This document shows, in pieces, positions 1,616 to 39,423 of a stretch of DNA of 64,000 nucleotides. This stretch comes from Candidatus Bathyarchaeia archaeon (GTDB lineage Archaea > Thermoproteota > Bathyarchaeia > Bathyarchaeales > Bathycorpusculaceae). Numbering within the stretch: the stretch's first letter is position 1; every line of letters begins with the position of its first letter. The position numbers were made by a program, and so were the translations under genes. The stretch lies in the NCBI GenBank assembly GCA_041481365.1, contig JBGPBS010000001.1, forward strand, positions 13,063-77,062. Reading direction: 5' to 3'. Under the pieces are notes generated by a model. The model did no database searches. It saw only the letters and a program-made list of their open reading frames with translations, and was not told the DNA's origin.

Positions 1616-1616
1616 G

Positions 1617-5506: not shown

Positions 5507-5624
5507 ACTGATCTGTGAAGAGCGGAGCGTTGTAGAACAGCAGAATGCCCATGGAGAAGGCTGAAGCATGAACGAAGTAAATCGCGCAGGGGAGATAGTT
5601 TAGTTATGGAGGGGAGAGAGAATA

Positions 5625-9003: not shown

Positions 9004-9176
9004 ACTTCACCTCAGTTAGCCAGATGTTTTAAAAGCTTGTGTCTGAAAAACGCCTCGGAAAACAGAATGCAGTCACAGTTACTGGAGGGGCAGCGTGCAA
9101 CTGTGAGCCCTCAGTATTTGAGAAGCTGAGTGCATATGAAAACGCGCTGATAACTAATAGTATTTGCTCAACAGGT

Positions 9177-9837
9177 TTAGGGATCCGTTGCCAGTCTGAC
9201 CCTTCGAGGAACTAATATGACAGTCCAATTTGCTTTACTTGCCATTCTTCCCAGGCCATCAAGACTGAAGCCGTGCAGGTGAAGGGCATAAGCCATGGGA
9301 CGGTCTTGCTGGCCTAGCCGAAGCATCTGGCTCAGACCCAAATGCTCGGACACCTGTCTAATCGGACGTAGCGAGTTCCAAGGGTAGGAGATGGCTACGT
9401 TTCGAGGCTTGTGGCGCAACCATTCTTCAAGCTGAGCCAGAGACAGCAAAGTTCGATTTTCAACCATTTTCAGGCTGTCTCCTCCGGCGGGGGAAAATCA
9501 TAGCCATGGTGAACCTTTGCAAACCATTCAGGTCTTTCGTCAGCAACCTTCTTCTCGCATTTTCCTTGGAGCATCCCATAACAGCGCTCGATGAGACGGT
9601 CGTCCGCAAAAACTGGAATGCCATGATGGAATTCAAGGACGATATCAAGCGTTTTTCGAGCTTGTCTTAGGTGCGAAGTGAATGCGTAGTAAATCACTTC
9701 TTGCTTGAGTTGTTCCGCAATCTCATGCGTCTGGAAAAGGCCTTTCGGAGTGAGTCCGGGGTCACGGCACCTGAGAATAACCCGCGGACGTTGTCAGTCG
9801 TTTCAGCATGCCTGAAGACGAATAGCTTGCAAATCAT
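9177..9837 (-). pseudogene. Histidine phosphatase (phosphoglycerate mutase family) pseudogene with at least two frameshifts
   Basis: The N-terminal FVFRHAETTDN (RHG motif) sits in one frame. DPGLTPKGLFQTHEIAEQLKQEVIYYAFTSHLRQARKT continues in a second frame (shift near 9775-9780). PPP/GGDSLKMVENR...NVAISYPWNSLRPI continues in a third frame (shift near 9478-9490). The expected SHGNSLR is degraded to SYPWNSLR. Confidence 0.75.
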
Positions 9838-23224: not shown

Positions 23225-23749
23225 TCACATTTCGAAGTCTAAGCTTGCCTGCCTTCTGGGCAATACTTTAAGCAGGTCATGGATAATTTTCCTCACCGCT
23301 ACGCCAACCTCGCGTGAGAGTCCTTCTCCAAAATCAGTCTCCTTAGGCTCAACTAGGACTAGGCCTATCTTGGCTTTCCCCATTTTCATAATGTACTCGC
23401 AGAATATTCTCATCGGAAGTGTATGCGTTGAGAACGCGGGAGAATCCTGCAGCTGTGTGGAATCAAGGAGTCTTGGTTCTCCAGGTTTCAACCCCAAGAT
23501 TGCAGCGTCTATCAGTAGAACGTGAGTAGGATCAAAATCCAGTATTTGTTGGGTGAAGCTTTCCGGAACAGTCTCACACTCAATTAGCAATACGTTCTCG
23601 GAGACTTTCCCATGCAGGCCCTGGATTACTTTGACCCCAAGAAAGTCATCTGATCGGATGGGGTTTCCGATCCCGGCGACTACGACCTTCTCGGCGTCTG
23701 AAAGCCACTCTTTCAGATCTTCATAAATGCCATGTTTCATGACAGCCAC
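23225..23749 (-). CDS. [NiFe] hydrogenase maturation endopeptidase
   Basis: VVVAGIGNPIRSDDFLGVKV (GxGNxxxxDDxxG). Lies directly downstream of the large-subunit gene. Confidence 0.85.
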   Translation of the reverse strand: MAVMKHGIYEDLKEWLSDAEKVVVAGIGNPIRSDDFLGVKVIQGLHGKVSENVLLIECETVPESFTQQILDFDPTHVLLIDAAILGLKPGEPRLLDSTQLQDSPAFSTHTLPMRIFCEYIMKMGKAKIGLVLVEPKETDFGEGLSREVGVAVRKIIHDLLKVLPRRQASLDFEM

Positions 23750-23799: not shown

Positions 23800-25254
23800 T
23801 TACCGTTGGATTGTTTTGATCAGCTGCCTCTTGCTGTCGAATATGTTTACTGTGAGGGGCATCTGTCCGACTGCATAGTGTGTGGCACATCCGAAGCAAG
23901 GGTCGTAGGCTCTGAAGGCCATTTCAACCATGTTGAGCACGCCTTGGTCCACTCTGCCACCGTGGATCACGCCTTTGGCCGCATCGCGGATTGACATGCA
24001 GATCGCGGGATAATTGTTAGTCGTTGCCACTATCAGGTTGACGTCTTTCACGAGCGCGTCCTTGTCTAGCACGTAGTGGTGGAACAATGTTCCTCTAGCA
24101 GCTTCGACGACTCCTACGCCTTCGCTGGGGTCGCCTGGCTTGTTCCTCACGTTTGTGCTCGTTATCTCTGGGTCCCTGCTGAGCTCAAGCCCCTTTTCCG
24201 CAGCGTACAGCAGCTCGATCAGTCGTGCCCAGTGGAAAGCCAACGTGCCATGCACAGGTTTGCCGCCAAGGGTCTTGTACATCTGTTCATACTCTGCTTG
24301 GGCAAGCGGCGTGGTCATGCCGTCTGAAGCGTTGAGCCTTGCAAGTGGGCCAACGCGATAGACTCCGCTGTCCATCCCGTAGACTTGGCCTTTCCATCCG
24401 ACCTTCTTCAGGTACGGGAACTTTGCATAGGTCCATTCTTCCACGTGTTCGCCGACGTAGTTCAGATAGTCCTTGGGTTCAAACTTCAGGAACTCCTTGC
24501 CGTTAGGGTCGACGACTCTGATTTGGCCATCGTAGAAGTTTACCTTGTTGTTCTCGTCAACCAAGCCCATGTAATACGTCTTCATCGTATAGGCTTCGCT
24601 CTTGATCATGTCCACATATTTGCTATTGCCCAAAACGATGCTGTGGAACAGCTTCAACGTGAGCTTCGCAAACTCCACCGAAGAGGCGGTCATCCTCTCG
24701 ATTTCCTTCCTATTATCTTCGCTCAGCGCCTTGGATATTCCCCCAGGCAGCCCACATACTGGATGCGTTGCTTTTCCGCCCAGAATCTCCGTTATCTTCT
24801 GCCCATATGCCCTGTGCTTGATGACTTCTTTGGCGACGTCCATGCCTGCTTTTTCGATGACACCGAGGATGTTTCTTTTCTGAGGCGGCGCATCTGGCCC
24901 GACTATGAAGTCTGGACCGCCGAGAAAGTAGAAGTGCAGAATGTGATCGTAGATGATGTATCCTGCATACATGAGTTCTCTGAGCTTCTTTGCAGCTGAT
25001 GGCGGTTCAACGCTGAAGGCCGCGTCCAACGCTTTTACTGCTGCGAAATGGTGTGCCACTGGGCAGACGCCGCATATTCTCGTGGTCAGTATGGGCATCA
25101 GTTCAGCTCTGCGTCCAATGCAGAACTTTTCGAAGCCCCTGAGTTCCGGAATCTTCAGATACGCATTTTCAACTTCGCCCGCGTCGTTCAAGAATATTGA
25201 AATGTTCCCGTGGCCTTCAAGCCTGCTAATCGGGTCTATGATTACTTCTTTCAT
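23800..25254 (-). CDS. mvhA: F420-non-reducing (Mvh-type) [NiFe] hydrogenase large subunit
   Basis: N-terminal RLEGHG and RICGVCPVAH. C-terminal DPCFGCATH, followed by a 25-aa extension of the kind removed by the maturation protease. Confidence 0.9.
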   Translation of the reverse strand: MKEVIIDPISRLEGHGNISIFLNDAGEVENAYLKIPELRGFEKFCIGRRAELMPILTTRICGVCPVAHHFAAVKALDAAFSVEPPSAAKKLRELMYAGYIIYDHILHFYFLGGPDFIVGPDAPPQKRNILGVIEKAGMDVAKEVIKHRAYGQKITEILGGKATHPVCGLPGGISKALSEDNRKEIERMTASSVEFAKLTLKLFHSIVLGNSKYVDMIKSEAYTMKTYYMGLVDENNKVNFYDGQIRVVDPNGKEFLKFEPKDYLNYVGEHVEEWTYAKFPYLKKVGWKGQVYGMDSGVYRVGPLARLNASDGMTTPLAQAEYEQMYKTLGGKPVHGTLAFHWARLIELLYAAEKGLELSRDPEITSTNVRNKPGDPSEGVGVVEAARGTLFHHYVLDKDALVKDVNLIVATTNNYPAICMSIRDAAKGVIHGGRVDQGVLNMVEMAFRAYDPCFGCATHYAVGQMPLTVNIFDSKRQLIKTIQR

Positions 25255-26252
25255 TCCTTCATCACCTTTCTTCTAAGAAGCGACGATGGCAAAGAGTACA
25301 TGTAGAACGTGCCCACAGGGTCTTTAATCTGGCTCATGAGCTTCTCAACATCCTCTTCAGTGTAATGATCCTGCTCAGTCTCCAAGCCTAATATCGAAGC
25401 TATAGCGCTCATCATTGCTGCACCTTGCTCCGGCGAGTTTGGGCATGGACCGCCGCATCCCGTGCATGGCATGTCAACGGTCAAGCATTGGGCGCCGCAT
25501 CCGCTTCGAGTGGCTGGCCCCATGCAGATGATTCCCTGTTCGAGCAGGCATCTTTCGGGTTCAGGAACTTTCTCGTGAACGCGGTATATCTTCGAGATTT
25601 TTTTGTTTTCCTTCTTCCTTGGACACTCGTCGCAGACGGATTTTAGGGGTGCAAGAACTGAGCCTTTTGCTGGAAGCTCGTTCTTTCTTATGGCGTCAAT
25701 GGTGTTCAATATCAGCTTGACTGGCGGTGGACAGCCTGGCAGGTAATAGTCAACTTTGACGGTTTGATCCAAAGTCTTGACCGTGTCGTAAAATTCTGGG
25801 AGCTTCAGGACTCCCTCTTTTACTACAGTCTTGGTCTGCGGGATGACTCCTTCAGCGTTTGAAACGGACTTGCTCTCAAGATAAACCTTGCTGAAGATCT
25901 CTTTGCGGTCATGAAGATTCGCTAGGCCGGGTATGCATCCTTCTTGCGCGCATGACCCGAAGGCCACGAGTGTCTTTGCCTTCTTCCTCAGAAGCTTGGC
26001 CATATGTTCTTGTTCTTCGCTCCTCACGGACCCGTTGAAAAAACATACGTCGATGTAGTTGTCAGGCATGTTTTCCACGTCCTTGTATTTGACGTCCATC
26101 GCCACGGGCCAGAACACTATGTCCGCAATGTTCACTACATCCAAGATCTTCTCGTTGATATCCAACACTGCGATCTCGCATCCACCGCAGCTTGCAGCCC
26201 AATAGAAGGCTAACTTCAGCTTCTCTTTCGGCATCTTACTTCTCTCCATCAC
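25251..26252 (-). CDS. mvhG: Mvh-type [NiFe] hydrogenase small subunit
   Basis: AASCGGCEIAVLD, GSCAQEGCIPG and C-terminal Cys clusters. ATGA-type overlap with mvhA. Start ambiguous (GTG 26252, ATG 26249 or ATG 26234). Confidence 0.88.
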   Translation of the reverse strand: MMERSKMPKEKLKLAFYWAASCGGCEIAVLDINEKILDVVNIADIVFWPVAMDVKYKDVENMPDNYIDVCFFNGSVRSEEQEHMAKLLRKKAKTLVAFGSCAQEGCIPGLANLHDRKEIFSKVYLESKSVSNAEGVIPQTKTVVKEGVLKLPEFYDTVKTLDQTVKVDYYLPGCPPPVKLILNTIDAIRKNELPAKGSVLAPLKSVCDECPRKKENKKISKIYRVHEKVPEPERCLLEQGIICMGPATRSGCGAQCLTVDMPCTGCGGPCPNSPEQGAAMMSAIASILGLETEQDHYTEEDVEKLMSQIKDPVGTFYMYSLPSSLLRRKVMKE

Positions 26253-27150
26253 AAACTTTGCCCAGCATTTTTGAAACGTCCACCCTGAGCTCGTTAAACG
26301 CCAACTCTCCAGGCTTCATGCCCATTGCCAAACCGAGTAGCTGTGGATAATGCAATATTGGAATGCCGTAAACCTCGTTAAACATCTTCTCAATTCGCAG
26401 CTCATTCGTGTCATACATTATGTGACAGAACGGGCAAATCGTAATCATGGCCTCTGCATCAACCGTTTTGAGGTGACTAAGCTTGTCCCTGGCAAGCTGC
26501 AGGGCAACCTTGTCGCTCACACCTACGCTCGGGGCGCCACAGCATTCAGTCTCATCCATGTAGTCTAAGCATGTCGCACCAGTGGCTTCAATCAGCGTCT
26601 TAAGTGTCTTAGGATCCTCAGGATCGTCAAATCCGATGAATTCTTTGGGCCTCAGAATGTGGCATCCATTGTGTTCAGCAACTTTGAGCATAGTAAGCGG
26701 CTTGGACACCGAGTTCTTGATCCTCTTCAACCCGACATCCTCGATCAACACTTGCATAAAATGCTTCGCATCAGAAGTTCCCTTAAACTCCAAACCGGCA
26801 TCCTTCAAGTGGCCGTTTATGTCATCACGCAAATCCTTGTCTTCCTTGAGCATCTTGTTGACTTTCTTCAAAGTTCCCGCGCAACCAGGACACAAGGTGA
26901 CAATCTTTAGGCCTTCACGTTCGGCCAAGGCCAAGTTTCTAGCAGCAAGTATGAGCATCATTTCATGACTAACCGGATCCAACGGCAGACCGCAGCAGTT
27001 GAATTCGCGCATCTCCTGCAGCTCCACGCCTAACCTGCCCAAGACCTTACGTGCCGAAATCTCAAAGGCGCTAACACGGTAAGGAATCGCACAGCCTAGA
27101 AAGATGAGATACTTTGAATCCGCCAATTCACTCACCCTTCTTTCCCACAT
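26236..27150 (-). CDS. hdrB: Heterodisulfide reductase subunit B (two CCG domains)
   Basis: FNCCGLPLD and TECCGAPS CCG motifs; 304 aa. Confidence 0.9.
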   Translation of the reverse strand: MWERRVSELADSKYLIFLGCAIPYRVSAFEISARKVLGRLGVELQEMREFNCCGLPLDPVSHEMMLILAARNLALAEREGLKIVTLCPGCAGTLKKVNKMLKEDKDLRDDINGHLKDAGLEFKGTSDAKHFMQVLIEDVGLKRIKNSVSKPLTMLKVAEHNGCHILRPKEFIGFDDPEDPKTLKTLIEATGATCLDYMDETECCGAPSVGVSDKVALQLARDKLSHLKTVDAEAMITICPFCHIMYDTNELRIEKMFNEVYGIPILHYPQLLGLAMGMKPGELAFNELRVDVSKMLGKVCDGEK

Positions 27151-27652
27151 ATTTCATAAAGTGCACGTTCAGAAGCGTCTTGCCTATGCTGTCTGGGTTT
27201 CCCTTCGGCAGCGGAGGCAACCCTAACTGTTCCCTCTTTCTCATTCTCAACTCTGGAATCTTGTACGCGTATCCTGACTCAAGAATGCTTGACGCCTGCT
27301 CCTTGAAGACCTGTGGCACGCAGCCCTGCTCTGCAGCCAAGTTTCTCAAGACACGTATGACACTTGCTACCTCAACGTCTTGTGGGCAGCGATCCGTACA
27401 TGTGAAACATGCCGCGCAGAGCCACAGTGTGTCGCTCTTCAACACTCTGTCTTTGAGGCCGAGCTGAGCCATGCGAATAATCTGTCTGGGCCTGTAGGTG
27501 TCGCTGAACCTTGCAACAGGACAGTCAGACGTGCAAGTCCCACACTGGAAGCAGCGCATCAGCTTCTCGCCGCCGCGCATCTTTGAAATATCATATTTGA
27601 ACTTCGGATCCATCTCCGAAGCCTTGATCATTTTCTTCTCCGACTGTTCCAT
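27128..27652 (-). CDS. hdrC: Heterodisulfide reductase subunit C (2x[4Fe-4S])
   Basis: CFQCGTCTSDCP and CAACFTCTDRCP. Confidence 0.9.
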   Translation of the reverse strand: MEQSEKKMIKASEMDPKFKYDISKMRGGEKLMRCFQCGTCTSDCPVARFSDTYRPRQIIRMAQLGLKDRVLKSDTLWLCAACFTCTDRCPQDVEVASVIRVLRNLAAEQGCVPQVFKEQASSILESGYAYKIPELRMRKREQLGLPPLPKGNPDSIGKTLLNVHFMKYVGKKGE

Positions 27653-28089
27653 TAGGCTTCAACCTCCTTGCCTCCAAGCGGGTTCGGCCCGAGCTTCTTT
27701 ATGTCATCAACCATGTCGCGCACCACCGCGGCAAACTTGTCCCCTTCACTCGCCGAAATCCACTCCAACCGCAAACGTTCAGGCTCTATCCCGAAATCCT
27801 TCAAAACTTCCCTCAACAACGTAATCCTCCGCAACGCCTTGAAGTTCCCACTAATGTAATGGCAGTCCGAAGGCAAGTGACAACCAGCAACAAGCACGCC
27901 GTCCGCGCCATCCTTGAAAGCCTCAAGGATAAAGGCCGGATCGATTCTGCCGCTGCACATGACACGGATGATCCTAATGTTCGGAGGATATTGTATTCTG
28001 CTGACGCCGGCCAAGTCTGCACCAGCATAGCTACACCAGTTACATAAGAAACCGATGATCTTCGGCTCAAACCCATTCTTTTCACTCAT
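27652..28089 (-). CDS. mvhD: Methyl-viologen-reducing hydrogenase delta subunit
   Basis: IGFLCNWCSYAGADLAGVSRIQYPPNIRIIRVMCSGRIDP. TAATG overlap with hdrC and ATGA overlap with hdrA. Confidence 0.9.
   Translation of the reverse strand: MSEKNGFEPKIIGFLCNWCSYAGADLAGVSRIQYPPNIRIIRVMCSGRIDPAFILEAFKDGADGVLVAGCHLPSDCHYISGNFKALRRITLLREVLKDFGIEPERLRLEWISASEGDKFAAVVRDMVDDIKKLGPNPLGGKEVEA
27986..28072. repeat. 87-nt segment perfectly identical to 31792-31878 (5-prime coding region of mvhD copy 1)
   Basis: Base-by-base comparison of both loci. Identity begins at GGATATTGTATTCTG and ends at CGGCTCAAAC. The flanks diverge immediately. Confidence 0.9.
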
Positions 28090-31000
28090 GCTGTAGCCTC
28101 CGTTAATGCGGCTTCAACCTGGGCAAGTATCTCCTGCGTCGTAAAGTGTCCCATCGTGATAGCCTTCGTCGGGCATGCTGTGCCACAGGCGCCGCAGCCC
28201 TTGCACAAGGCCTCAATCACGTGTGCGATCGGCTTACCCTCTTTCTCTTTCAATTCGACTGCACCGTAAGGACACAGATATTCACAGATTCTGCAACCGC
28301 TACATAAATCTTCAGATACGTTTGCTACGATTCCTTCCATCTCGAGCTTGTCTTTCGAGAGAATCGTCGTCGCCCTTGCAGCGGCCGCACAAGCCTGCGA
28401 TATGCTCTCGTCAATGTACTTTGGCGAATGCGCCATTCCGCAGAGAAAAACGCCTTCTGTCGCAAAGTCCACGGGCCTAAGCTTCATGTGTGCCTCCAAG
28501 AAGGAACCTTCTTTGGTCAAAGGCACTTTGAGCATTCCAGCCAAGTGCTTGTTGTCAGGGTTTGGAATAGTTGCCGCACTCAAGACGACGGTGTCCGGCT
28601 CAACCTCAACCTCTTGACCTAGAACAGGCTCCCAGAAGATCACCGCCAGCCTTCCTTCCTCGTTCAAGACTTGCGGTTTCCTCTCATCATCATAGTTTAT
28701 GAACAGGACCCCTTTCATGGCGGCTTCTCGGTAATAATCCTCCTTGAAACCATAGGCACGCATATCCTTGTACAAGACGTAGACTTCAGTCTCTGGGCTT
28801 ACTTCTTTGATCTTCAACGCGTTCTTTATCGCTTGGCCACAGCAGATTCTCGCGCAGTTCGGTCTTTCCTCGTTCCTCGCGCCGACGCATTGTATCATGA
28901 GAACACTTTTGGCCTTGAAAGCGCCTTTCGAGAGTTTCTCTTCAAGCTCATGCTGAGTCACTATTCTCTGATCTGTGCCATAGAGGTATTCCTTAGGCGT
29001 GTACTCGGTAGCGCCTGTAGCTACTATGACTATGCCATGCTCGATTTCCTTCTCTTTGCCGTCGTGCTGCTTGATCTTCGTCTTGAAGTTGCCTACAAAA
29101 CCGTAGATATCGGTGACCTCTGCACTAGTGTAGACGTGTATCTTGCTGTTGCCCATAACTTCCTCAGCTAGAGCATCAAGCTTCTCCTTCGGGTTTGTGT
29201 TCTCCCCCAGCAGATAGTGAATCGTGCGGAGATGCCCGCCTAGCTCCTTTTCTCTTTCGACCAGATGAACCTCGAATCCCTGCCTCGCAAGCTCCAAAGC
29301 GGAGGTCATGCCGGACACTCCTCCGCCGATGACGAGGCCGATTGGCGTGACGTTTATCAAGGGCTTCTCCAACGGCTTCAAGAGCTTGGCCTTCGCAACT
29401 ATTGAGCGCACTAGGTCTTTGGCTTTCTTAGTGGCTGATTTCGGGTCATGCATGTGAACCCAGCTGCACTGATCTCGAATGTTCGTCATCTCGAACAGGT
29501 ACGGGTTCAACCCTGCTTCCTGCACCGTCTCCTTAAACAGGGGCTCATGCGTACGAGGAGTGCACGAAGCTACGATCACGCGGTTAAGGTTGTTCTGCTT
29601 TATCTTCTCCGCTATGAGTTTTTGAGTGTCCTGAGAACAGGTGTAAACGTTCGCCTCAGCATAGGCCACGTTGGGCAGGGTCCGGGCATACCGCACTACT
29701 TCCGGAACGTTGACCACGCCGCCGATGTTTATGCCGCAGTGACAGACGAACACGCCTATGCGCGGCTCTTCCTTGCTGACATCCCGTACGGGCGGGTACT
29801 CCTTCTTCTTAACCAGTTTTCCTCTTTCGCTCGCAACGATGCCCATGGCCTTTGACGCTGCCCCGCTTGCCTGAGCAACGCTCTCAGGGATATCCTTCGG
29901 CGCGGAGAAGGCCCCGCAGACGAATATGCCAAGCTTCGAAGTCTCAACCGGCGAGAACGTCTCCGTGTCACAGAACCTGTACTTGTTAAGTTTTATGCCC
30001 AAGTTCTTGGCAAGCTTCTCAGCGTCCTTTGGAGCCGTCATTCCAATCGACAGGACAACCATGTCGAACTCTTCTTCTTTGGGCGTCTCGTTCTCAACGT
30101 AATGAACGAACAGGTTCCCCGTTTTCGGATCTTCGGTCACTCCTGCGACTCTCGATCTCACAAAACGGATGCCCCACTCTCCTTGGGCACGCTCATAGTA
30201 TGAGTCAAATTCCTTCCCGTAAGAACGCATGTCCATGTAGAAAATGGTGGGGTCTAACTTCGAAGGCGTGTGCTCCTTAGCTATCACTGCCTCTTTCATG
30301 CCGTACATGCAGCATGCAGCTGAGCAATAATTGTTCCCAAGCTGATAGTCACGTGAACCAACACAGAAGACAAAAGCGATCTTCTTGGGAATCTCACCGT
30401 CCGACGGCCTTAGAACAAGTCCGCCATACGGTCCAGAAGCGCTCAGGATACGTTCAAACTCGATACTCGTCACAACGTTCGGATATCGACCGTAACCGTA
30501 CTCGCTCTTTAACCGCGCGTCGAAAGTTTCGAAGCCGAGAGCAAGAATGATCGAGCCAACTTTCAGCTTCCCTTCAGTCTCCTCTTGCTCATACTGAACG
30601 GCGTTTGCTTTGCAGATTTCAGCACATGTTCCACAACCGATGCATCTTTCACGGTCGATCATATACTTCAGCGGCACGGCTTGCGGGTACTCAACATAGA
30701 TCGCACCCCTATTGCCGAGACCCATATTGAACGTGTCGACCGCTTCGATCGGACATTTCTGTGCGCAAAGGCCGCAGCCGTTGCATTTGTCTTCGATTAT
30801 GTAACGAGGCTTCCTTCGAAGTTTTACTTCGAAGTTTCCAGCTTCACCGTTCAAGCCCGTGATTTCCGCGTTCGTCAAAATCGTGATGTTCGGATGCCTT
30901 CCCGTCGCCACGAGCTTGGGCGAAAGAATGCACATTGAACAATCGTTTGTTGGGAACGTCTTATCCAGCTGCGCCATCACGCCGCCTATGCATGGGCCCT

Positions 31001-31109
31001 GTTCGACCAGGTAGACCTTGAACCCAGAATCAGCTAAGTCAAGAGACGCCTGTATCCCTGCTACTCCTCCGCCCACTACCATGACTGCTCCAACTTTGGC
31101 ATCCGCCAT
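28086..31109 (-). CDS. hdrA: Double-length fused HdrA-like flavoprotein (two tandem HdrA-type FAD modules)
   Basis: 1007 aa. Module 1: GGGVAGIQASLDLA, MAQLDKTFPTNDCSMCIL, inserted ferredoxin CNGCGLCAQKCP/CIGCGTCAEIC, CVGSRD. Module 2: VFVCHCGINIGG N-domain, GGGVSGMTSALELA, IQCVGARNE..CARICC, C-terminal CSGCRICEYLCP/CKGCGACGTACP. Confidence 0.9.
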   Translation of the reverse strand: MADAKVGAVMVVGGGVAGIQASLDLADSGFKVYLVEQGPCIGGVMAQLDKTFPTNDCSMCILSPKLVATGRHPNITILTNAEITGLNGEAGNFEVKLRRKPRYIIEDKCNGCGLCAQKCPIEAVDTFNMGLGNRGAIYVEYPQAVPLKYMIDRERCIGCGTCAEICKANAVQYEQEETEGKLKVGSIILALGFETFDARLKSEYGYGRYPNVVTSIEFERILSASGPYGGLVLRPSDGEIPKKIAFVFCVGSRDYQLGNNYCSAACCMYGMKEAVIAKEHTPSKLDPTIFYMDMRSYGKEFDSYYERAQGEWGIRFVRSRVAGVTEDPKTGNLFVHYVENETPKEEEFDMVVLSIGMTAPKDAEKLAKNLGIKLNKYRFCDTETFSPVETSKLGIFVCGAFSAPKDIPESVAQASGAASKAMGIVASERGKLVKKKEYPPVRDVSKEEPRIGVFVCHCGINIGGVVNVPEVVRYARTLPNVAYAEANVYTCSQDTQKLIAEKIKQNNLNRVIVASCTPRTHEPLFKETVQEAGLNPYLFEMTNIRDQCSWVHMHDPKSATKKAKDLVRSIVAKAKLLKPLEKPLINVTPIGLVIGGGVSGMTSALELARQGFEVHLVEREKELGGHLRTIHYLLGENTNPKEKLDALAEEVMGNSKIHVYTSAEVTDIYGFVGNFKTKIKQHDGKEKEIEHGIVIVATGATEYTPKEYLYGTDQRIVTQHELEEKLSKGAFKAKSVLMIQCVGARNEERPNCARICCGQAIKNALKIKEVSPETEVYVLYKDMRAYGFKEDYYREAAMKGVLFINYDDERKPQVLNEEGRLAVIFWEPVLGQEVEVEPDTVVLSAATIPNPDNKHLAGMLKVPLTKEGSFLEAHMKLRPVDFATEGVFLCGMAHSPKYIDESISQACAAAARATTILSKDKLEMEGIVANVSEDLCSGCRICEYLCPYGAVELKEKEGKPIAHVIEALCKGCGACGTACPTKAITMGHFTTQEILAQVEAALTEATA

Positions 31110-31895
31110 CTAGGCCACCTCCAAAGCTCTATAGAGCGGGGTCGTACCCTCAATATGGTCCACTGTTATCATGTTCCTTCTCCGCATGTTCACGATCTGC
31201 TTGAGAACGGCCGCTGGCTCCAAGCAAGTTGCCTCGGACAAGGCCTTGATTGAAAGAGGCTCAGTTTGTGTCAATAGATGAATCTTCTGCCGAAAGAACT
31301 CGGCTTCAACAACCTCGTCGAGCAACGAATCAAACTCTTCTTGCGAGACTTTCTCATCGTACACGTTGTTTTTCTCTGTCAACTCTCTTTCCCTTCCGAC
31401 CAGAACTCTCAGCCTGAAATCTGAAGCAGCATTCCTTGCTGCTTCAAGGTTTTCAAGAACCTTCTGATCAGGCACTTTACCTGATGCGGGTGAGGGACCA
31501 AGCTTCTTTATCTGATCTGTGAATTCGGTCACTATTTGAGCAAACCTTTGACCCTCAGACGCTGAAACCCAGTCGAGTCTCAAGCGGTCTGGTCCTAAGC
31601 CCGTTAACGCTAGCAGCTTCTTCAGCATCTTGATCTTCCTTTCCTCGTACAGGTTTCCCTCGACATAGTGGCAATCAGCAGGGTGACATCCCAGGACAAT
31701 CACGCCATCTGCTCCGCGCATGAAAACCTCTAGGGGAATAATCGGGTCGATTCTTCCACTGCACATAACCCGGACAACCCTGATGTTTGAGGGATATTGT
31801 ATTCTGCTGACGCCGGCCAAGTCTGCACCAGCATAGCTACACCAGTTACATAAGAAACCGATGATCTTCGGCTCAAACGATTTCTTCTCACTCAT
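31110..31895 (-). CDS. mvhD: MvhD-domain protein with a ~120-aa C-terminal extension
   Basis: The N-terminal 140 aa are paralogous to 27652-28089 (IIGFLCNWCSYAGADLAGVSRIQYPSNIRVVRVMCSGRIDP). The extension ends in a helix-turn-helix-like LSIKALSEATCLEPAAVLKQIVNMRRRNMITVDHIEG. Confidence 0.88.
   Translation of the reverse strand: MSEKKSFEPKIIGFLCNWCSYAGADLAGVSRIQYPSNIRVVRVMCSGRIDPIIPLEVFMRGADGVIVLGCHPADCHYVEGNLYEERKIKMLKKLLALTGLGPDRLRLDWVSASEGQRFAQIVTEFTDQIKKLGPSPASGKVPDQKVLENLEAARNAASDFRLRVLVGRERELTEKNNVYDEKVSQEEFDSLLDEVVEAEFFRQKIHLLTQTEPLSIKALSEATCLEPAAVLKQIVNMRRRNMITVDHIEGTTPLYRALEVA
31792..31878. repeat. 87-nt segment perfectly identical to 27986-28072 (5-prime coding region of mvhD copy 2)
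   Basis: See the partner repeat at 27986-28072. Confidence 0.9.
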
Positions 31896-31896: not shown

Positions 31897-33597
31897 TCAG
31901 TCGCCTCCCAAGGCTGCAGTAGCCTCTGCTAAGACCTGCTTGTCGCTGAAATGCCTCATCGTTATGGCCTTTTCTGGACAACTTGCAGCGCAGACGCCGC
32001 ATCCTTTGCAGAGAACGTCGTTGACTCTTGCTACTCCACGCTCATCCTTTTGGATAGCATTATAAGGGCAAAGTTTGACGCAGGTTCCGCAGCCCGTGCA
32101 CAGGACTTCATCGACTACGGAGGTTATGGCTTCCGTCCGCACTCGTTTCAGAGCCATGGGGATGCCTGCCCTTGAGGCAGCAGCATATGCCTGCGCGATG
32201 CTTTCAGGAATGGTCTTCGGGCTGTGAGCCGTTCCGCAGACGAATATTCCGTCCGTCGCGAAATCAACTGGCCTAAGTTTGACGTGAGCCTCAAAGAAGA
32301 AGCCGTCAGCTCCGATTGGAACCTTAAGCACCTTTGAAAGCTCTTTTGCGTCTCCAGTTTGAACCAGCGGAGTTGACAGAACGACGAGGTCAGCGTCAAG
32401 TTCAAGATTGTCATTAACTAGAATATCGCGCACTCTTACGGTGCATTTTCCATTCGACTCAACGGCAACTTCTGGAGGATCCTCCGCATCAAACCTTATG
32501 AATTGAACAAAGCTCTCTCTGGCCTTTTGATAGCAATCTTCGAAATCCTTGCCGTACGTCTGCATGTCCCTGTAGAGTATCGACACCTCAGCGTCTGGAT
32601 ACAGCTTTTTGATTTCCAGGGCATTCTTGACCGCGGTGGCACAGCATATTCTTGAACAATAGTTACGGCCGCCTTCTTTCCCTTCTCTTGCACCGACGCA
32701 TTGGATCATGACGACGTTCTTTGGATTCTTCAGCTTGCCCTCCTTCATGAGCCGCTCAAGCTCAAACTGAGTGACAACGTTCTTGCACTCGCCGTAACAG
32801 TACATTCCGCTGGGCTCGAAGACTTCCGCCCCCGTGGCCACGATTATCGTTCCAACGTCAAGCGCCTCATCCTTCCCTTCCTGATCCAGCGTAACCTTGA
32901 AGTTTCCTATGAAACCCTCAACGTTCTTAACCGTCGATAGAATGTGCAAGGTGATGCTCGGATTTGACTTCACGGCTTGAACAAACTCCTCCACTATTTC
33001 CGATGACTGCATGTCAGTCGGATAGAGCTTACAAAGCTCATTCAGCTTGCCTCCAAGCGCTTCTTTCTTTTCAACAAGGTGAACCGAAAAACCCTGATGC
33101 GCAAGGCTGACCGCCGCACTCATTCCTGAGATGCCACCGCCTATAACAAGGGCTGATGGTTGAACTTCGATCTCCGGCTCTGTCTGAGGCTCAAGCAGAG
33201 CAGCCTTGGCGACCGCCATTCTAACAATCTCTTTGGCTTTCTCTGTTGCCTCAGCCGGCTCCTTCGCGTGGACCCAGCTGCAGTGCTCTCGGATGTTGGC
33301 CATATGGAACAGATACTTGTTCAAACCTGCCTCTTCACAGGCACCTCTGAAAAGCGGCTCGTGAGTCCTGGGTGTACAAGAGGCCACGACCACTTGAGTA
33401 AGACCGTATTTCTTAATGGCCTCTTTGATCTTGCTTAATCCTTCTGACGAACAAGTGTAAAGGTTACCTTCAGCATACGCAACGTTGGGCAACGACTTCG
33501 CGTATTTAACAACTTCTGGAACGTTAACCACAGAGCCTATGTTGACCCCACAGTGGCAGACGAAAACGCCCACCTTAGGCTGTTTGTTCTCGCTCAT
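31897..33597 (-). CDS. hdrA: HdrA-like flavoprotein, C-terminal half of a split double HdrA
   Basis: Starts MSENKQPKVGVFVCHCGVNIG at an ATG that overlaps the upstream stop (ATGA). Collinear with residues ~445-1007 of the fused HdrA. GGGISGMSAAVSLA, IQCVGAREG..YCSRICC, CTGCGTCVKLCP/CKGCGVCAASCP. The ORF track extends it to 33708. Confidence 0.88.
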   Translation of the reverse strand: MSENKQPKVGVFVCHCGVNIGSVVNVPEVVKYAKSLPNVAYAEGNLYTCSSEGLSKIKEAIKKYGLTQVVVASCTPRTHEPLFRGACEEAGLNKYLFHMANIREHCSWVHAKEPAEATEKAKEIVRMAVAKAALLEPQTEPEIEVQPSALVIGGGISGMSAAVSLAHQGFSVHLVEKKEALGGKLNELCKLYPTDMQSSEIVEEFVQAVKSNPSITLHILSTVKNVEGFIGNFKVTLDQEGKDEALDVGTIIVATGAEVFEPSGMYCYGECKNVVTQFELERLMKEGKLKNPKNVVMIQCVGAREGKEGGRNYCSRICCATAVKNALEIKKLYPDAEVSILYRDMQTYGKDFEDCYQKARESFVQFIRFDAEDPPEVAVESNGKCTVRVRDILVNDNLELDADLVVLSTPLVQTGDAKELSKVLKVPIGADGFFFEAHVKLRPVDFATDGIFVCGTAHSPKTIPESIAQAYAAASRAGIPMALKRVRTEAITSVVDEVLCTGCGTCVKLCPYNAIQKDERGVARVNDVLCKGCGVCAASCPEKAITMRHFSDKQVLAEATAALGGD

Positions 33598-34913
33598 CTC
33601 TTGGCCTCCTTTGAAAGGCAGGCTATGGTCTCCGCTGCTCTTGCGGCCGCCCCGCTTGCCTGAGCAACGCTTTCTGGAATGTCCTTTGGGCTTTGGCAGT
33701 AACCGCAAATGTATATTCCAGCGACGTTTGTGTCAACTGGAGCTGTGAGCTGATTCTTGGACTTGAAGAATCCATACTCGTCAAGCTCTACGCCGGTCGC
33801 CTCGGCGATTTTCTTGTTGTCTACTTTTGGAATCAACGCTGGGCACAACACAACCATGTCAGCATCAAGCTTCTTCATGTTACAGCCTGCCTTGATGTCC
33901 TCATAATAGATTTGAAGACTCCTCGTTTTTGGATCTTCAGCGATTCCCCCGGGATGTGCCTTAATGTAATTCACGCTGTACTGGCTTTTTGCCCTGTCGA
34001 CGAATTCTTGAAAGCCTTTACCGACTGCTCTCATGTCCATGTACATGATGTAGACTTCAGTGTCGGGCATATGGTCTTTTGCCAAGATTGACTCCTTAGT
34101 CGCGTAGACACAGCACACGCTTGAGCAGTAGGGCAGTTCGCCCCGTTGGCTCCTCGAACCCACGCATTGAACGAAAACCAGGCTTTTGGGCTCTTTCCCG
34201 TCAGAAGGTCTAAGAAGGTGACCATCCGTGGGTCCAGACGCGCATATCAGCCTCTCAAATTCCATCGAAGTAATCACGTTCTTGAACCGTCCATAGCCGT
34301 ACTCCTTCATCGCTGAAGTATCGAAAGCGTCGAAGCCCGTCGCAAGAATTATCGAGGAGACGTTCAACACCTTTTCCTTCGGCTTTTGTTCATAATCTAT
34401 AGCAGCTGAGGGGCAGATTTTCTGGCATACTTTGCAGACGCCCTTCGTGAAGTATAGGCAGGTGTTTGGATCAATGGTGGCCACAAGGGGCACTGCCTGC
34501 TTGAAGGGCATGTATATGGCTTTTCTGTTTCCCAACCCCATGTCGAACTCATTTGGTGCCTTGACGGGACATTTCTCCATGCAGGTGCCACAGCCAGTGC
34601 ATTTGTCAGCGGTCACGTACCTTGGTTTCTGTAAGACTTTGACCTTGAAGTCACCCTTATCACCGCGAACCTCCTTTACCTCTGAGTAAGTCAACATCGT
34701 AATGTTCGGATGTCTGAAGCATTCAATCATCTTCGGCGCCAGTATGCAGATTGAACAGTCAAGCGTTGGGAAAGTCTTGTCGAGCTGTGCCATCCGACCG
34801 CCTATGCTGGGTGTCTTTTCGACGAGGTAGACTTTGGTTCCGCGGTTAGCCAAGTCGAGGGACGCTTGTATTCCAGCTATGCCTCCGCCGATTATCAGAA
34901 CCGAGTTTGACAT
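33594..34913 (-). CDS. hdrA: HdrA-like flavoprotein, N-terminal half of a split double HdrA
   Basis: 439 aa, collinear with residues 1-~440 of the fused HdrA. GGGIAGIQASLDLA, MAQLDKTFPTLDCSICIL, inserted ferredoxin CTGCGTCMEKCP, CVGSRSQ..YCSSVCC, PKDIPESVAQASGAA. Confidence 0.88.
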   Translation of the reverse strand: MSNSVLIIGGGIAGIQASLDLANRGTKVYLVEKTPSIGGRMAQLDKTFPTLDCSICILAPKMIECFRHPNITMLTYSEVKEVRGDKGDFKVKVLQKPRYVTADKCTGCGTCMEKCPVKAPNEFDMGLGNRKAIYMPFKQAVPLVATIDPNTCLYFTKGVCKVCQKICPSAAIDYEQKPKEKVLNVSSIILATGFDAFDTSAMKEYGYGRFKNVITSMEFERLICASGPTDGHLLRPSDGKEPKSLVFVQCVGSRSQRGELPYCSSVCCVYATKESILAKDHMPDTEVYIMYMDMRAVGKGFQEFVDRAKSQYSVNYIKAHPGGIAEDPKTRSLQIYYEDIKAGCNMKKLDADMVVLCPALIPKVDNKKIAEATGVELDEYGFFKSKNQLTAPVDTNVAGIYICGYCQSPKDIPESVAQASGAAARAAETIACLSKEAKR

Positions 34914-35140: not shown

Positions 35141-37942
35141 CTAGCCCACGAGCGCTTCAGTCTTCTTCGATTCAACGACTTGCTCTTTAGGAGGTTCTGC
35201 TTGAACCTGAGGCCCTTCAATTTTCCTTGGTTCGGGACATTTCAACATTTCCTCCTCTTTCAGGTTGAGACCTCCTTTGGCCGTACCATCTTCCATGTAC
35301 GTAACGGTGAAACCCATCTTTTTCATGAGGTTTATTGCCCTGTAATTATCCGGCAACATGATAGCAAAGAGGCCTTCAATTTTCATGTCCTTGCAGATTT
35401 CAATCGCATAGTCCACCAGTTTCGTTCCCAAGCCTAGGCCTTGCCATGGATCTGCGACGATGAAGGCAATTTCGCCAGTTTTGCCATCAGGTTCAAGACT
35501 CACCCTGACAACGCCCAGTATTCTTCGCCGTTCGTTTTCGGTCATTTCGGCAACGATGGCAATTTCCCGGTCATAATCGATATTGCAGTATCGAACTCTC
35601 GTCTCATGCGGCGTATCCTTGATTATCTGGAAAAACCTGTAGCGAATCGATTCTTCCGAGAAACTCTGGAACATTTCCAGCCAAAGATGTTCATCCTCAG
35701 GCTTGATAGGCCTCAACATCACGTGGCGTCCATCCCTGAGCTTCCACGCGGTTTCATACTTCTTCGGATAAGGAGTAATGACCAGATGCTGATGAGGCCC
35801 AAGCTTCTCAAACACTTTGTTCTTGTCCACGACGATGCGTGCGTCGAAAGCAAATGCCTCAGTGTCATTTATGAAAAGAGGGTTGATGTCAACCTCTTTC
35901 AGCTGTGGAAAATCGATAAGCATCTGGCTAAAATGCACCATAATCTCCTCAAGCAGCTTAATGTTTGCAGCTGGAACGTTTCTGTACCCCTTTAGGAGCT
36001 GATAGACCTTCGTTTCCTCCATGATTCTTCTAACTAGGGTCTGATTCAACGGAGGCAACCCAAGCGAAAAATCTTTGAACAGCTCGACGCCTATGCCTCC
36101 CATGCCGAAAAGAATGACTGGCCCAAACAGCGGATCCGTTTTTGCTCCGATTATCACCTCATAGCCATGCTTCTTGATCATCCGCTGCATGGTTACGCCT
36201 AGGATTTCAGCGTCAGGTCTATACTGCTTGGCGCGCTGAATGATCCTCTCATAAGCCTCGCGGAGTTCAGTTTCATTGTTTATGTCAAGTACTACTCCGC
36301 CCGCATCAGTCTTGTGAACTATCTGAGGAGAGAGAATCTTCATGACAACGGGATAACCCATATCTTTTGCGAAGGCAATAGCTTGCTCCACATTCTGAGC
36401 GACTTTTGTCTTCACCACAGGAAAATTGTAGAACTCGAGGAAAGTCTTTGCCTCAGCCTCATTGAGTATTTCACGATTCTCCTTCGCCATATCCCTCATC
36501 ATGACCATCAGCGGCCGCTTCGGAGGAGCCACATCCACAGGGAGCTCTTCAGGCGTCTCATACAGCAGTTCAAGGTTGCTCTTGTACTGGTACATGTACA
36601 TGTACGTTTTAACGGCCTGCTCAGGCGTCGAATAAGTTGGAATGTTGTTCTGATTGAAAACACGATTAGCCTCTTCTACGGTTCCGTAGCCCATAAAACT
36701 AGTCAGAATAGTCTTGTTCTGATAGGTCCGACTCTTGCAAAGCTCAGCGATGGTTCGGGCAATTTCAACGGGTTCGCCCACGGCCTGAGCCGTATAGATG
36801 ATGAGGATACCGTCAATGTTCTCGTCGTTCAAACAAGCTTCAACAGTCGCCTTGTACCTGTCTGCTTTTGCATCTCCTAGAATGTCAATAGGGTTGCCTC
36901 TGCTCCAGTAGTGAGGCAGAAAGCTGTTTAGCGTTTCCATGGTTTTGGGACTCAGCCTAGCCATTTTCCCTCCCCTGCCTATGATTGCATCTGTGGCCAT
37001 CACACCAGGTCCGCCGGCATTCGTGATTATGGCTAAGTTTGGCCCTCGCGGAAGCGGCTGCGTGCCCAGAACCTCCGCACAGTTGAAGAGATCCGCGATT
37101 TCATCCACACGTACGATGCCAGCACGTCTGAACGCTTTGTCGTAGATTATATCTTCGCCAGTAAGCGAACCAGTGTGTGAAGCAGCAGCTTTGGCGCTTT
37201 CGCCGAACTTGCCAGCTTTTACGACGATTATAGGCTTGGATCTAGCGAAATGTCTCGCGGCGCTCATGAACTTGCGGGCATCCGTTAACCCTTCAACGTA
37301 CATTAAGATGCTCTTGGTCTTCGGGTCTGTTCCAAAATAATCAATCAGGTCTCCGAAATCAACGTCTATCATCGAGCCTATCGAGACGAAATTGCTGAAA
37401 CCAATGTTCTCATGCATCGCCCAGTCCAGTATAGCAGAACCGAGTGCACCGCTTTGGCTGATAAAAGCTACGTTGCCGGATTTGGGCATTCGGTTTATGA
37501 ACGTTGCGTTCAAACCAATGCTGGGACGAACGATGCCTAGGCAGTTCGGTCCTATTATTCGCAGGCCATATTTGCTCTTCACCTCAAGAATTCGCTCTTC
37601 GAGGATCTTGCCTTCAGGACCTATCTCCTTGAAACCCGCGCTTATTATGATCAAGCCCATTATTCCAGCTTTTCCACACTGTTCCACTATGTCTGGAACG
37701 GTTCTTGCAGGCGTGGCAATCACCGCCAAGTCGACAGGTTCACGAATCTGCTCCACCGAAGAATAGGCTTTGTAACCCATGATTTCGGTCTTACGAATGT
37801 TGACCGGATAGACGTCCCCTTGAAACTTGAGCTCGATGAGGTTCTTCATCAAAGCATAGCCGACTGTTCCATCTTCATCGCTTGCGCCGACCACTGCTAT
37901 GCTCTTGGGGTTGAAAATCTTGTTCAGATTCAGAGTAACCAA
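35141..37942 (-). CDS. ADP-forming acetyl-CoA synthetase (alpha+beta fused) with a C-terminal GNAT acetyltransferase domain (Pat-like architecture)
   Basis: 933 aa. CoA-binding N-terminus IAVVGASDEDGTVGY, phosphohistidine loop AAASHTGSLTG, ATP-grasp region. GNAT loop DPWQGLGLGTKLVDYAIE near the C-terminus. Confidence 0.88.
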   Translation of the reverse strand: MVTLNLNKIFNPKSIAVVGASDEDGTVGYALMKNLIELKFQGDVYPVNIRKTEIMGYKAYSSVEQIREPVDLAVIATPARTVPDIVEQCGKAGIMGLIIISAGFKEIGPEGKILEERILEVKSKYGLRIIGPNCLGIVRPSIGLNATFINRMPKSGNVAFISQSGALGSAILDWAMHENIGFSNFVSIGSMIDVDFGDLIDYFGTDPKTKSILMYVEGLTDARKFMSAARHFARSKPIIVVKAGKFGESAKAAASHTGSLTGEDIIYDKAFRRAGIVRVDEIADLFNCAEVLGTQPLPRGPNLAIITNAGGPGVMATDAIIGRGGKMARLSPKTMETLNSFLPHYWSRGNPIDILGDAKADRYKATVEACLNDENIDGILIIYTAQAVGEPVEIARTIAELCKSRTYQNKTILTSFMGYGTVEEANRVFNQNNIPTYSTPEQAVKTYMYMYQYKSNLELLYETPEELPVDVAPPKRPLMVMMRDMAKENREILNEAEAKTFLEFYNFPVVKTKVAQNVEQAIAFAKDMGYPVVMKILSPQIVHKTDAGGVVLDINNETELREAYERIIQRAKQYRPDAEILGVTMQRMIKKHGYEVIIGAKTDPLFGPVILFGMGGIGVELFKDFSLGLPPLNQTLVRRIMEETKVYQLLKGYRNVPAANIKLLEEIMVHFSQMLIDFPQLKEVDINPLFINDTEAFAFDARIVVDKNKVFEKLGPHQHLVITPYPKKYETAWKLRDGRHVMLRPIKPEDEHLWLEMFQSFSEESIRYRFFQIIKDTPHETRVRYCNIDYDREIAIVAEMTENERRRILGVVRVSLEPDGKTGEIAFIVADPWQGLGLGTKLVDYAIEICKDMKIEGLFAIMLPDNYRAINLMKKMGFTVTYMEDGTAKGGLNLKEEEMLKCPEPRKIEGPQVQAEPPKEQVVESKKTEALVG

Positions 37943-38778: not shown

Positions 38779-39423
38779 CTAGGCAGAAGCAAGTATCACG
38801 TGTTCCAGAAACAGATCTTCCGGCAGAGCGCCCACAAACTCCACTTTCTCATTTATGACAACTTTTGGAACGCCCACTACCCCGTACCTGAGAGCCAAAT
38901 GCGGAAACTCGCCCGCATCAACAACGTCCGCCCTTATCAAGTCATTTTCTATCGCAAACTTATGGGCCGTAGCTGCCGCCACTGGGCAATGTGGACAAGT
39001 CAGAGTCACAAAAACCTGAATGTGAACCTTAGTCTTGACCTCTTTGAGAAGCTCTCTGGTCTTATCTGAAATGTCGGTTCTTTCTCTCGAAACGTTCACC
39101 AAGGCTTCCGTTAGGGTTTGGAACTCGTAGCCAAAGGGAAACCCGAAATATCTAACTTGATGATCCTTTTCACCAATGATAGCGATCGCAGGAACTTTGT
39201 CTATCCCATACTCCTTAGCCTTGTCAGCGTCCGCGACAAAATCATAAATTTCAACTTTGATCTTTTCATTCAGTTCTGCCACTTCTTGAACTAGTTGTCT
39301 TGTCTCCGCGCAATATTTGCATTCAAGCTCCTGAGTAAACATGAGTATTCTCACTGGTTTTTCCAGTTTTTTGGCAAGTTCATTCTTCAGGTGTTCCTTG
39401 TGCTCAGCGGGTATCAAACTCAT
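38779..39423 (-). CDS. Protein disulfide oxidoreductase with two thioredoxin folds (archaeal PDO type)
   Basis: 214 aa with two CxxC sites: ECKYCAET and TCPHCPVAA. Confidence 0.85.
   Translation of the reverse strand: MSLIPAEHKEHLKNELAKKLEKPVRILMFTQELECKYCAETRQLVQEVAELNEKIKVEIYDFVADADKAKEYGIDKVPAIAIIGEKDHQVRYFGFPFGYEFQTLTEALVNVSRERTDISDKTRELLKEVKTKVHIQVFVTLTCPHCPVAAATAHKFAIENDLIRADVVDAGEFPHLALRYGVVGVPKVVINEKVEFVGALPEDLFLEHVILASA

Follow-up and report, generated by a model that had tools for sequence, protein, structure and literature searches.

A predicted asymmetric HdrA pseudo-dimer encoded in both split and fused form within one Mvh-Hdr operon of a Bathyarchaeia archaeon

We describe an Hdr operon on the minus strand of a 64,000-nucleotide stretch of DNA (hereafter the window) from a Candidatus Bathyarchaeia archaeon (contig JBGPBS010000001.1, positions 13,063 to 77,062), in which HdrA is encoded twice: once as two adjacent genes, A1 and A2, and once as a single long gene, F. 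In methanogens, as in many other anaerobes, energy metabolism has HdrA at its core, the protein that carries out flavin-based electron bifurcation. We consider it probable that A1 together with A2, and F by itself, are paralogous versions of one HdrA pseudo-dimer that holds a single complete bifurcation unit, in which the flavin adenine dinucleotide (FAD) of the first half is the bifurcating one. This is supported by the complementary domain content of the two halves, by the conservation of that complementarity across homologues, and by the co-evolution of the halves as pairs. All genes of the window described below lie on its minus strand, and their coordinates are those of the window.

Results

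The split HdrA consists of A1, a 439-residue 'catalytic' half (33594..34913), and A2, a 566-residue 'arm/scaffold' half (31897..33597), and the fused protein F has 1007 residues (28086..31109). By BLASTP, A1 matches residues 19-426 of F (49.3% identity, E 5e-141) and A2 matches residues 447-1002 (49.6% identity, E 0), the two matches being collinear. F is divided into an N-half with the domain set of A1 (residues 1-430), a linker (431-449; 29763..29819), and a C-half with the domain set of A2 (450-1007). The break between A1 and A2 maps to this linker of about 20-25 residues, between ...AQASGAASKAMGIVASERGK and ...PRIGVFVCHCG, and in the split copy the stop codon of A1 and the start codon of A2 overlap in the sequence ATGA (33594..33597), with GGAGG 8 nucleotides upstream of the ATG, as in translational coupling. 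A 603-residue open reading frame (ORF) starting with TTG (31897-33708) was considered for A2 and rejected; the 566-residue start is taken as the true one because HdrA homology begins at its residue 5 and the RTGA/GGAGG junction is kept in relatives.

Domain content was judged by alignment to solved canonical HdrA chains (5ODC, 8RVU, 7BKB and 9SFI). The match of A1 is limited to ~141-570 of canonical HdrA (E 1e-145), that is, to the TrxR-type FAD fold and the inserted ferredoxin, and the N-terminal domain and C-terminal ferredoxin are absent. A2 aligns over 10-245 and 316-654 (E 9e-155), skipping the inserted ferredoxin, and is also without Cys194/197 and a 12-residue loop. Neither protein is therefore the full four-domain canonical chain of ~650 residues. 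An earlier note on this DNA, made from the sequence alone, had described the halves as collinear with F, split within its linker through an ATGA overlap, and complementary in domain content, and the alignments and ORF coordinates bear out each of these descriptions. Its list of domains for the second half was correct in what it named; it had left out the CVGAR...C..CC cluster of A2, and the second FAD fold also keeps its dinucleotide motifs.

Within A1, the TrxR-type FAD fold and TrxR [4Fe-4S] cluster are marked by GGGIAG (residues 9-14), CVGSR...CSSVCC (250-268) and GIYICG (399-404). The motif DKTFPTLDCSIC (34746..34781) contains Cys53 and Cys56, the equivalents of Cys194 and Cys197 of the solved HdrA 5ODC, and the inserted 2x[4Fe-4S] ferredoxin (34386..34619) contains the motifs CTGCGTCMEKCP and C-x7-C-x2-C-x3-CP, the second with a 5-residue insertion relative to canonical HdrA. 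A2 begins with an N-terminal, MvhD-like cluster domain (33193..33597) with the motifs CHCGVNIG (14-21), YTCS (47-50) and ASCTPR (72-77), continues with a second TrxR-type FAD fold and its [4Fe-4S] cluster, and ends with a C-terminal 2x[4Fe-4S] ferredoxin (31900..32142; motifs CTGCGTCVKLCP and CKGCGVCAASCP).

The same division holds inside F. A five-way alignment places DKTFPT-x-DCS-x-C in A1 (Cys53/Cys56) and in the N-half of F (Cys57/Cys60), with unrelated residues at these positions in A2 and the C-half of F; CHCG..NIG, YTCS and ASCTPR are found solely in A2 (14-77) and F (456-519). The 12-residue loop SGPTDG-x2-L-x-PSDG (372-385 in 8RVU numbering) is present in canonical HdrA and the N-halves and missing from the C-halves (around 32500-32560 in A2, and at the equivalent position in F). 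What all halves share is the set of four TrxR-cluster cysteines (CVGSR/CVGAR ... C-x2-CC) and the FAD dinucleotide motifs: GxGxxG, the acidic residue at the end of beta2, the GG motif and the C-terminal G-[IV]-[FY]-x-C-G occur in A1, A2 and both halves of F. In the five-way alignment the FAD folds of the N-halves are 50-52% identical to canonical HdrA, versus 39-44% for the C-halves. Counted by cysteine motifs, a pseudo-dimer has one inserted ferredoxin, in the unit with Cys197, and one C-terminal ferredoxin, in the unit with the N-terminal domain; its predicted cofactor load is 2 FAD and 7 [4Fe-4S] clusters.

An AlphaFold2 model of F has a mean predicted local distance difference test score (pLDDT) of 71.9 and a predicted template modelling score (pTM) of 0.76; the pTM is compatible with a defined packing of both halves, short of proof. 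Foldseek returned canonical HdrA chains as the best matches to the model (E 3.5e-54) and, as a single-chain comparison, found no double-HdrA chain in the PDB copy searched. Profile models gave a consistent picture, in that A1, A2 and F all fall below the cut-offs for canonical HdrA, both in NCBIfam NF041778 (scores 423, 444 and 756; cut-off 1400) and in NF041891 (386, 389 and 706; cut-off 1300). The HdrA2 model NF040770 is the top model for all three and for both MvhD proteins of the operon, and the HdrA scores are likewise under its cut-off of 1100 (F 1041, A2 572, A1 539).

Complementarity extends to homologues. With A2 as the query seed and each species represented by one genome, a scan gave 79 loci (referred to below by L numbers), in all of which the ORFs were mapped; each HdrA-like ORF was cut into A1-like and A2-like units and aligned to one canonical HdrA, giving 99 N-halves and 102 C-halves. 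The N-terminal-domain cysteines are present in every C-half (102/102) and in no N-half (0/99), and the reverse is true of Cys194 together with Cys197 (99/99 N-halves, 0/102 C-halves). All eight cysteines of the inserted ferredoxin are conserved in 100% of N-halves (99/99) and 0% of C-halves, and the eight of the C-terminal ferredoxin in 0% and 95-100%, respectively. Both kinds of half have the four TrxR-cluster cysteines in 100% of cases. The complementarity of the cluster ligands is thus absolute across the family.

The flavin sites are less evenly kept. GxGxxG and the GG motif are conserved in 97-98% of N-halves and 100% of C-halves, and the DKTFPT residues in 92-100% of N-halves, being degenerate in C-halves. 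A published list of flavin-contacting residues was not found in the literature searched, and we used instead these fold-family motifs and a lysine column five residues past the CC pair, which we take to be Lys409 in 5ODC numbering, the flavin-N5 lysine. This column is K in 96/96 N-halves versus 75/99 C-halves. As to the flavin contacts that the earlier note wanted checked, FAD motifs occur in both halves and the lysine column is K in A2 and the C-half of F, with the DKTFPT segment absent from the C-halves. Since the N-halves are closer to canonical HdrA, have an invariant lysine column and keep DKTFPT, the first half looks like the conserved catalytic unit; the second looks like a unit with relaxed constraint around its flavin.

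The dinucleotide motifs and TrxR-cluster cysteines of the C-halves, together with a lysine column that is still K in most of them, would also fit a different reading, in which both flavins are catalytic. The second half would then be a redox site in its own right, whether bifurcating or not, and would pass electrons to its own TrxR cluster and to either a second HdrBC or some other partner. We regard this as improbable, given that the DKTFPT/Cys194-197 segment, the inserted ferredoxin and the 12-residue loop are all gone from the C-halves, that the C-halves are more diverged from canonical HdrA, that the operon encodes a single hdrBC, and that in BamE, the fused HdrA dimer considered in the Discussion, the second FAD lies off the branching point and is judged structural (10.64898/2026.04.10.717634).

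Phylogeny connects the two halves. In neighbour-joining trees of the C-halves and of the N-halves, one deep branch separates a 'split' from a 'fused' family, matching gene state, and sorts 100 of the 102 C-halves and 96 of the 99 N-halves correctly. The split family comprises A1/A2 of Bathyarchaeia and sequences of ANME-1, a lineage of anaerobic methanotrophic archaea (ANME), of Thermoplasmatota and of others; the fused family comprises F of Bathyarchaeia and sequences of Methanomassiliicoccales, Desulfobacterota, Clostridia and others. Those not sorted in this way are genes truncated at the end of a contig or locus (L060, L042 and L043), a fragmented gene (L072), and a genuine independent fusion in an Altiarchaeota locus (L061), where MvhD is fused as well. 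Because the N-half and C-half trees show the same deep bipartition, the halves have co-evolved as pairs.

This bears on whether A1 and A2 are partners at all. Bathyarchaeia genomes encode several HdrA paralogues (L001 has three pairs), and it is by inference that we assign protein contacts to A1 and A2, so each could in principle form homodimers or pair with F or with paralogues encoded elsewhere. We think this very unlikely. An A2 homodimer would have an N-terminal-domain cluster without Cys197, and in an A1 homodimer Cys197 would find no cluster to ligate. A1-like and A2-like genes are without exception direct neighbours in a constant order, their trees are congruent, and the same two halves are joined covalently in the fused form. 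The asymmetric pseudo-dimer proposed as obligate in the earlier note is supported by this cysteine complementarity and by published work (PMC9012536; 10.64898/2026.04.10.717634), with the contact between A1 and A2 as its presumed element.

The split itself recurs widely. A separate A1-like ORF followed directly by an A2-like ORF was found at 43 loci from many independent assemblies. Nearly all of the closest relatives (A1 identity 74-90%) have the same 4-nucleotide RTGA overlap (ATGA, GTGA or TTGA) with an upstream GGAGG-like motif (L002-L008, L011, L012, L014-L017, L036, L054 and L055), and more distant split loci have other spacers, junctions and reading frames. The earlier note had wished to exclude a frameshift error at the junction, and the split is upheld: that one 1005-residue ORF was broken by a frameshift introduced in sequencing or assembly, or by a recent pseudogenising mutation, can be dismissed because split and junction recur across independent loci and both ORFs are full length with conserved termini, even though a single 1002-residue gene stands at the same position in L001, upstream of an 87%-identical long MvhD, and long-read metagenome-assembled genomes (MAGs) sometimes carry frameshifted Hdr genes. 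The L001 protein is not an orthologue, being 51-57% identical to A1/A2 and 69% to F and placed in the fused clade. The frameshifted genes in question are broken copies of F, at L010 (11280-14305), L015 (10475-13498) and L017 (11311-14336, where several neighbouring genes are broken too); unlike the precisely conserved A1/A2 junction, these irregular breaks are probably indel errors.

The order of the operon is A1-A2-MvhD(261)-F-MvhD(145)-HdrC-HdrB-MvhG-MvhA, with intergenic spacings from A1 to mvhA of -23 to +1 nucleotides, a tight packing. Between A2 and F lies a long MvhD of 261 residues (31110..31895; FlpD E 1e-51), consisting of an MvhD/FlpD [2Fe-2S] adaptor domain (1-136) and a conserved 125-residue extension predicted to be helical. 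F is followed by a short MvhD of 145 residues (27652..28089; FlpD E 2e-56) that overlaps the F stop by 4 nucleotides, an HdrC-like 2x[4Fe-4S] subunit of 174 residues (27128..27652; Pfam Fer4 dicluster), an HdrB-like subunit of 304 residues with two CCG domains by Pfam (26236..27150), an MvhG-like [NiFe]-hydrogenase small subunit of 333 residues (25251..26252; Pfam Oxidored_q6) and an MvhA-like large subunit of 484 residues (23800..25254; Pfam NiFeSe_Hases). A HycI-type hydrogenase maturation protease is encoded 50 nucleotides downstream of mvhA (23225..23749). The gene set of an MvhAGD-HdrABC-type H2:heterodisulfide/ferredoxin bifurcating complex, with group 3c [NiFe] large and small subunits, MvhD, HdrB with its two CCG domains, and HdrC, is therefore present in one cluster.

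This layout is conserved. The order A1(~438)-A2(~566)-MvhD(~258)-F(~1007)-MvhD(~145)-HdrC-HdrB-MvhG-MvhA is found, as far as contigs extend, in ~20 Bathyarchaeia MAGs from several independent studies, with A2 identity from 90% down to ~63% (L002-L007, L011-L014, L016, L019, L020, L031, L036, L054, L056 and others). The closest database relatives carry the names Candidatus Bathyarchaeota or Bathyarchaeia. The claim of the earlier note that both gene-fusion states were captured in one operon stands as far as co-occurrence goes; the two copies do not record a recent fusion or fission. Because A1A2 and F are only ~50% identical and fall into different deep clades, they are old paralogues belonging to two old families, and not a fission in progress; a recent duplication of the split and fused copies was rejected on the same grounds.

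Each form can accompany the hydrogenase genes by itself. In L021 (Bathyarchaeota, 233-7576) the order is A1-A2-short MvhD-HdrC-HdrB-MvhG-MvhA, without F and without the long MvhD, and the split form can therefore be the sole HdrA of an Mvh-Hdr cluster. Conversely, in Methanomassiliicoccales the fused form stands beside MvhD-MvhG-MvhA without a split pair (L064, L068, L070, L073-L077 and L080). Fused relatives are abundant: at 90% identity the top 120 clusters listed are all 1002-1022 residues long and at least 83% identical to F, and in the 50%-identity library nearly all of the best 150 representatives have 800-1500 residues, most spanning the whole query. The fused architecture is very common, being shared by more than 150 clusters at 50% identity, and this kind of HdrA is widespread. 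Exact-sequence look-ups with A2 and with a cluster representative 100% identical to F matched no contig. Half order is invariant, with the Cys197 half first in F and in 44/44 fused homologues examined.

Discussion

In the canonical HdrA homodimer, the N-terminal-domain cluster of each protomer is completed by Cys197 of its partner. Together with the inserted ferredoxin, this cluster forms the exit route of the low-potential electron from FAD, whereas the TrxR-domain cluster takes the high-potential electron to HdrC/HdrB, and hydrogenase electrons are delivered by MvhD with the mobile HdrA arm (PMC9012536, PMC6019823, PMC13518236). After the domain losses in the proteins described here, exactly one of these two symmetric units appears to have been kept. 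In our model, A1 and the N-half of F, as first halves, would each hold the bifurcating FAD, flanked by the Cys194/Cys197 pair; the TrxR [4Fe-4S] cluster of the first half would carry the high-potential branch to HdrC/HdrB, and its inserted ferredoxin would reduce ferredoxin with the low-potential electrons. The second half, meaning A2 in the split copy and the C-half in F, would give the N-terminal-domain [4Fe-4S] cluster in trans, to be completed by Cys197 of the first half, and its C-terminal ferredoxin together with MvhD would form the mobile electron-input arm. Its FAD and TrxR cluster, kept but off the branching point, would probably serve mainly as scaffold. Each pseudo-dimer of the operon would have its own MvhD, with HdrBC and MvhAG being single, and H2 would be the donor and ferredoxin and a disulfide the acceptors.

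This model has a close structural parallel. BamE of the class II benzoyl-CoA reductase of Geobacter metallireducens, described in a cryo-electron microscopy preprint as 'a fused HdrA dimer', has its bifurcating FAD (B-FAD) in the N-terminal TrxR1 domain, together with Lys280, the inserted ferredoxin and a Cys59-Cys62 pair adjacent to cluster E3. Its other FAD (NB-FAD), in TrxR2, lies away from the branching point and is judged structural, and the protein has seven [4Fe-4S] clusters, E1-E7 (10.64898/2026.04.10.717634). F similarly has Cys57/Cys60 in its N-half, seven predicted clusters and two FAD motifs, the cofactors of BamE agreeing in number and order with our prediction, and since the cysteine pair lies in the N-terminal unit and the cluster count is the same, BamE-like wiring is the best-supported model. 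The two systems differ in other respects. The partners of BamE are the tungsten enzyme BamBC, the HdrBC fusion BamD, and BamGHI, in place of the HdrC, HdrB and MvhAG hydrogenase found here; BamE is known in the fused state alone, to which this operon adds a split copy; and the second flavin of BamE is contacted by Gln768, in place of which, at the column that we equate with it by the text of the preprint, Lys is found in both A2 and the C-half of F.

Several points weigh against our model. We infer, from sequence, that A1 binds A2. Both C-halves in the window keep the N5-lysine column, the four TrxR-cluster cysteines and the FAD motifs, and a catalytic role for the second flavin therefore retains some plausibility. 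The presence of two pseudo-dimers and two MvhD proteins alongside one HdrBC and one MvhAG is not accounted for by a picture of one unit per complex. The trees were built by neighbour-joining without support values and from A2-seeded sampling. Finally, the correspondence of our lysine column with Lys280 of BamE, and of residues in BamE with ours in general, was drawn from the preprint text and not from an alignment.

The concept of an HdrA pseudo-dimer is not new, having been put forward for ANME (PMC9012536) and seen in the BamE structure (10.64898/2026.04.10.717634), and the current picture is unchanged by our findings because that concept is already published. Chadwick et al. 2022 described tandem and fused HdrA proteins in ANME (HdrA5/6, HdrA12/13, HdrA3 and HdrA4) and in the MetFV-HdrABC-MvhD of Moorella, with complementary loss of the N-terminal domain and of Cys197, and proposed heterodimers or self-pairing fusions (PMC9012536). 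In the ANME-1 loci L038-L040, an A1-like gene precedes a gene for an A2-MvhD protein, and both belong to the same split family as A1/A2. The ANME systems differ in that their partners are often FdhAB-like proteins instead of MvhAG, and in that HdrA3 and HdrA4 are stated to have the N-terminal-domain half first (PMC9012536), the reverse of F and of all 44 fusions examined. This Cys197-first order was not found in the searchable literature, nor was the conserved co-occurrence of a split and a fused copy in one operon, or a long MvhD between them.

Canonical HdrA (5ODC, 8RVU, 7BKB), the best match in sequence and fold, has the same FAD fold, TrxR cluster and ferredoxin domains, and the same MvhD, HdrBC and MvhAG neighbours, yet it places four domains in one ~650-residue chain. 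Its symmetric dimer contains two full bifurcation units, where we predict one unit per pseudo-dimer. Methanosarcina HdrA2 (NF040770) is an HdrA-MvhD fusion; here the MvhD genes are separate and the domain set of each half is incomplete. Judged by sequence, A1A2 and F have every testable feature of the asymmetric HdrA class, and they fail the cut-offs for canonical HdrA and HdrA2. Double HdrA fusions, often with MvhD attached, are numerous in TACK phyla (mSystems 2024, PMC11237513), in agreement with the abundance of fused forms found here; that survey differs from ours in containing no analysis of domain complementarity or of split/fused co-occurrence in one operon.

What the operon offers is a natural experiment, in which abundant uncultured Bathyarchaeia would have the same asymmetric HdrA both as a pair of polypeptides and as a single chain, encoded next to each other. 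The census across the family, where complementarity of cluster ligands is absolute and the second flavin site appears to be under relaxed constraint, adds comparative weight to the model of one bifurcation unit that was proposed for ANME and seen in BamE. That the HdrA beside the Mvh hydrogenase genes of Methanomassiliicoccales methanogens belongs to the fused family provides a cultivable route by which the model could be tested.

The role of the long MvhD is a separate question. It is 67% identical to the short MvhD. Among the 120 clusters listed for it, full-length identity is 78% or higher, and many residues are invariant. The C-terminal extension (residues 137-261, 125 residues; 31113-31487) is predicted to be helical with a helix-turn-helix-like end, and it had no significant match to Pfam or PDB sequences (MarR, E 0.12; FrmR, E 0.055). 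In a Foldseek search of the PDB, an AlphaFold2 model of the protein matched MvhD chains only, leaving the extension unmatched, and for this reason we call the extension winged-helix-like only tentatively. Some Joint Genome Institute annotations name the long MvhD 'delta subunit/predicted transcriptional regulator'. BamF, the MvhD homologue of the Geobacter complex, also exceeds the usual length by more than 100 residues and has a winged-helix motif that docks BamI; its likeness to the long MvhD is by description only. By analogy, the long MvhD may tether the A1A2 module to the F module or to an input module encoded elsewhere. Going further, the conserved tandem of split and fused copies could encode one super-complex and not two isoenzymes, with the extension tethering A1A2 to F-HdrBC-MvhAG or to an elsewhere-encoded input module; we raise this as a speculative arrangement that we consider unlikely. 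If it were true, two non-equivalent bifurcating flavins would be coupled in one assembly in a non-methanogenic archaeon. In loci related to Thermoplasmata and Methanomassiliicoccales (L058, L063 and L065), a 258-residue MvhD is also located between a split pair and a fused HdrA.

The L001 locus presents a variation on the operon. Here a fused 1002-residue HdrA (6214-9222, plus strand), 69% identical to F, replaces A1/A2, next to an F that is 90% and a long MvhD that is 87% identical to those of the window. We considered this gene as a fused orthologue of A1A2 and rejected it, as it falls within the fused clade and resembles A2 only over its final ~60 residues. Over these residues the protein is 81% identical to A2, compared with 56% to F. 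The sequences suggest a cassette swap with a recombination breakpoint within the C-terminal ferredoxin domain. The same genome encodes a third, split pair in a divergent cluster, HdrC-HdrB-436aa-599aa-MvhD153.

Further variants occur among other relatives. In Thermoplasmatota loci L046-L053 (e.g. L046, 10428-13430), the split pair is followed by a ~1000-1037-residue protein with an N-terminal MvhD domain, the remainder of which may represent an electron-input module in fused form. Relatives of F with 1300-1650 residues are numerous (P0122-P0139; L069, 4876-9828; L075, 4293-8768) and have a large insertion after about residue 150 of F, in the region of the inserted ferredoxin. This may be the NfnB-like insertion described for HdrA9-11 of ANME-1 (PMC9012536).

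With respect to the surroundings of the operon, an Rfam scan of the window found no RNA family. The MvhAGD-HdrABC-type complex is defined by CoM-S-S-CoB as its substrate. The Hdr substrate in non-methanogenic Bathyarchaeia is regarded as unknown in the literature (PMC7886697). A 214-residue protein with two thioredoxin/glutaredoxin-like domains, encoded 4 kb from the operon (38779-39423), is noteworthy in connection with this disulfide substrate. Directly upstream of the operon lies a gene for a 933-residue protein that resembles ADP-forming acetyl-CoA synthetase and has a GNAT acetyltransferase domain at its C-terminus (35141-37942), and the same neighbourhood of an acetyl-CoA synthetase-like gene and an Hdr operon is also present in L002-L008, L014 and L054.

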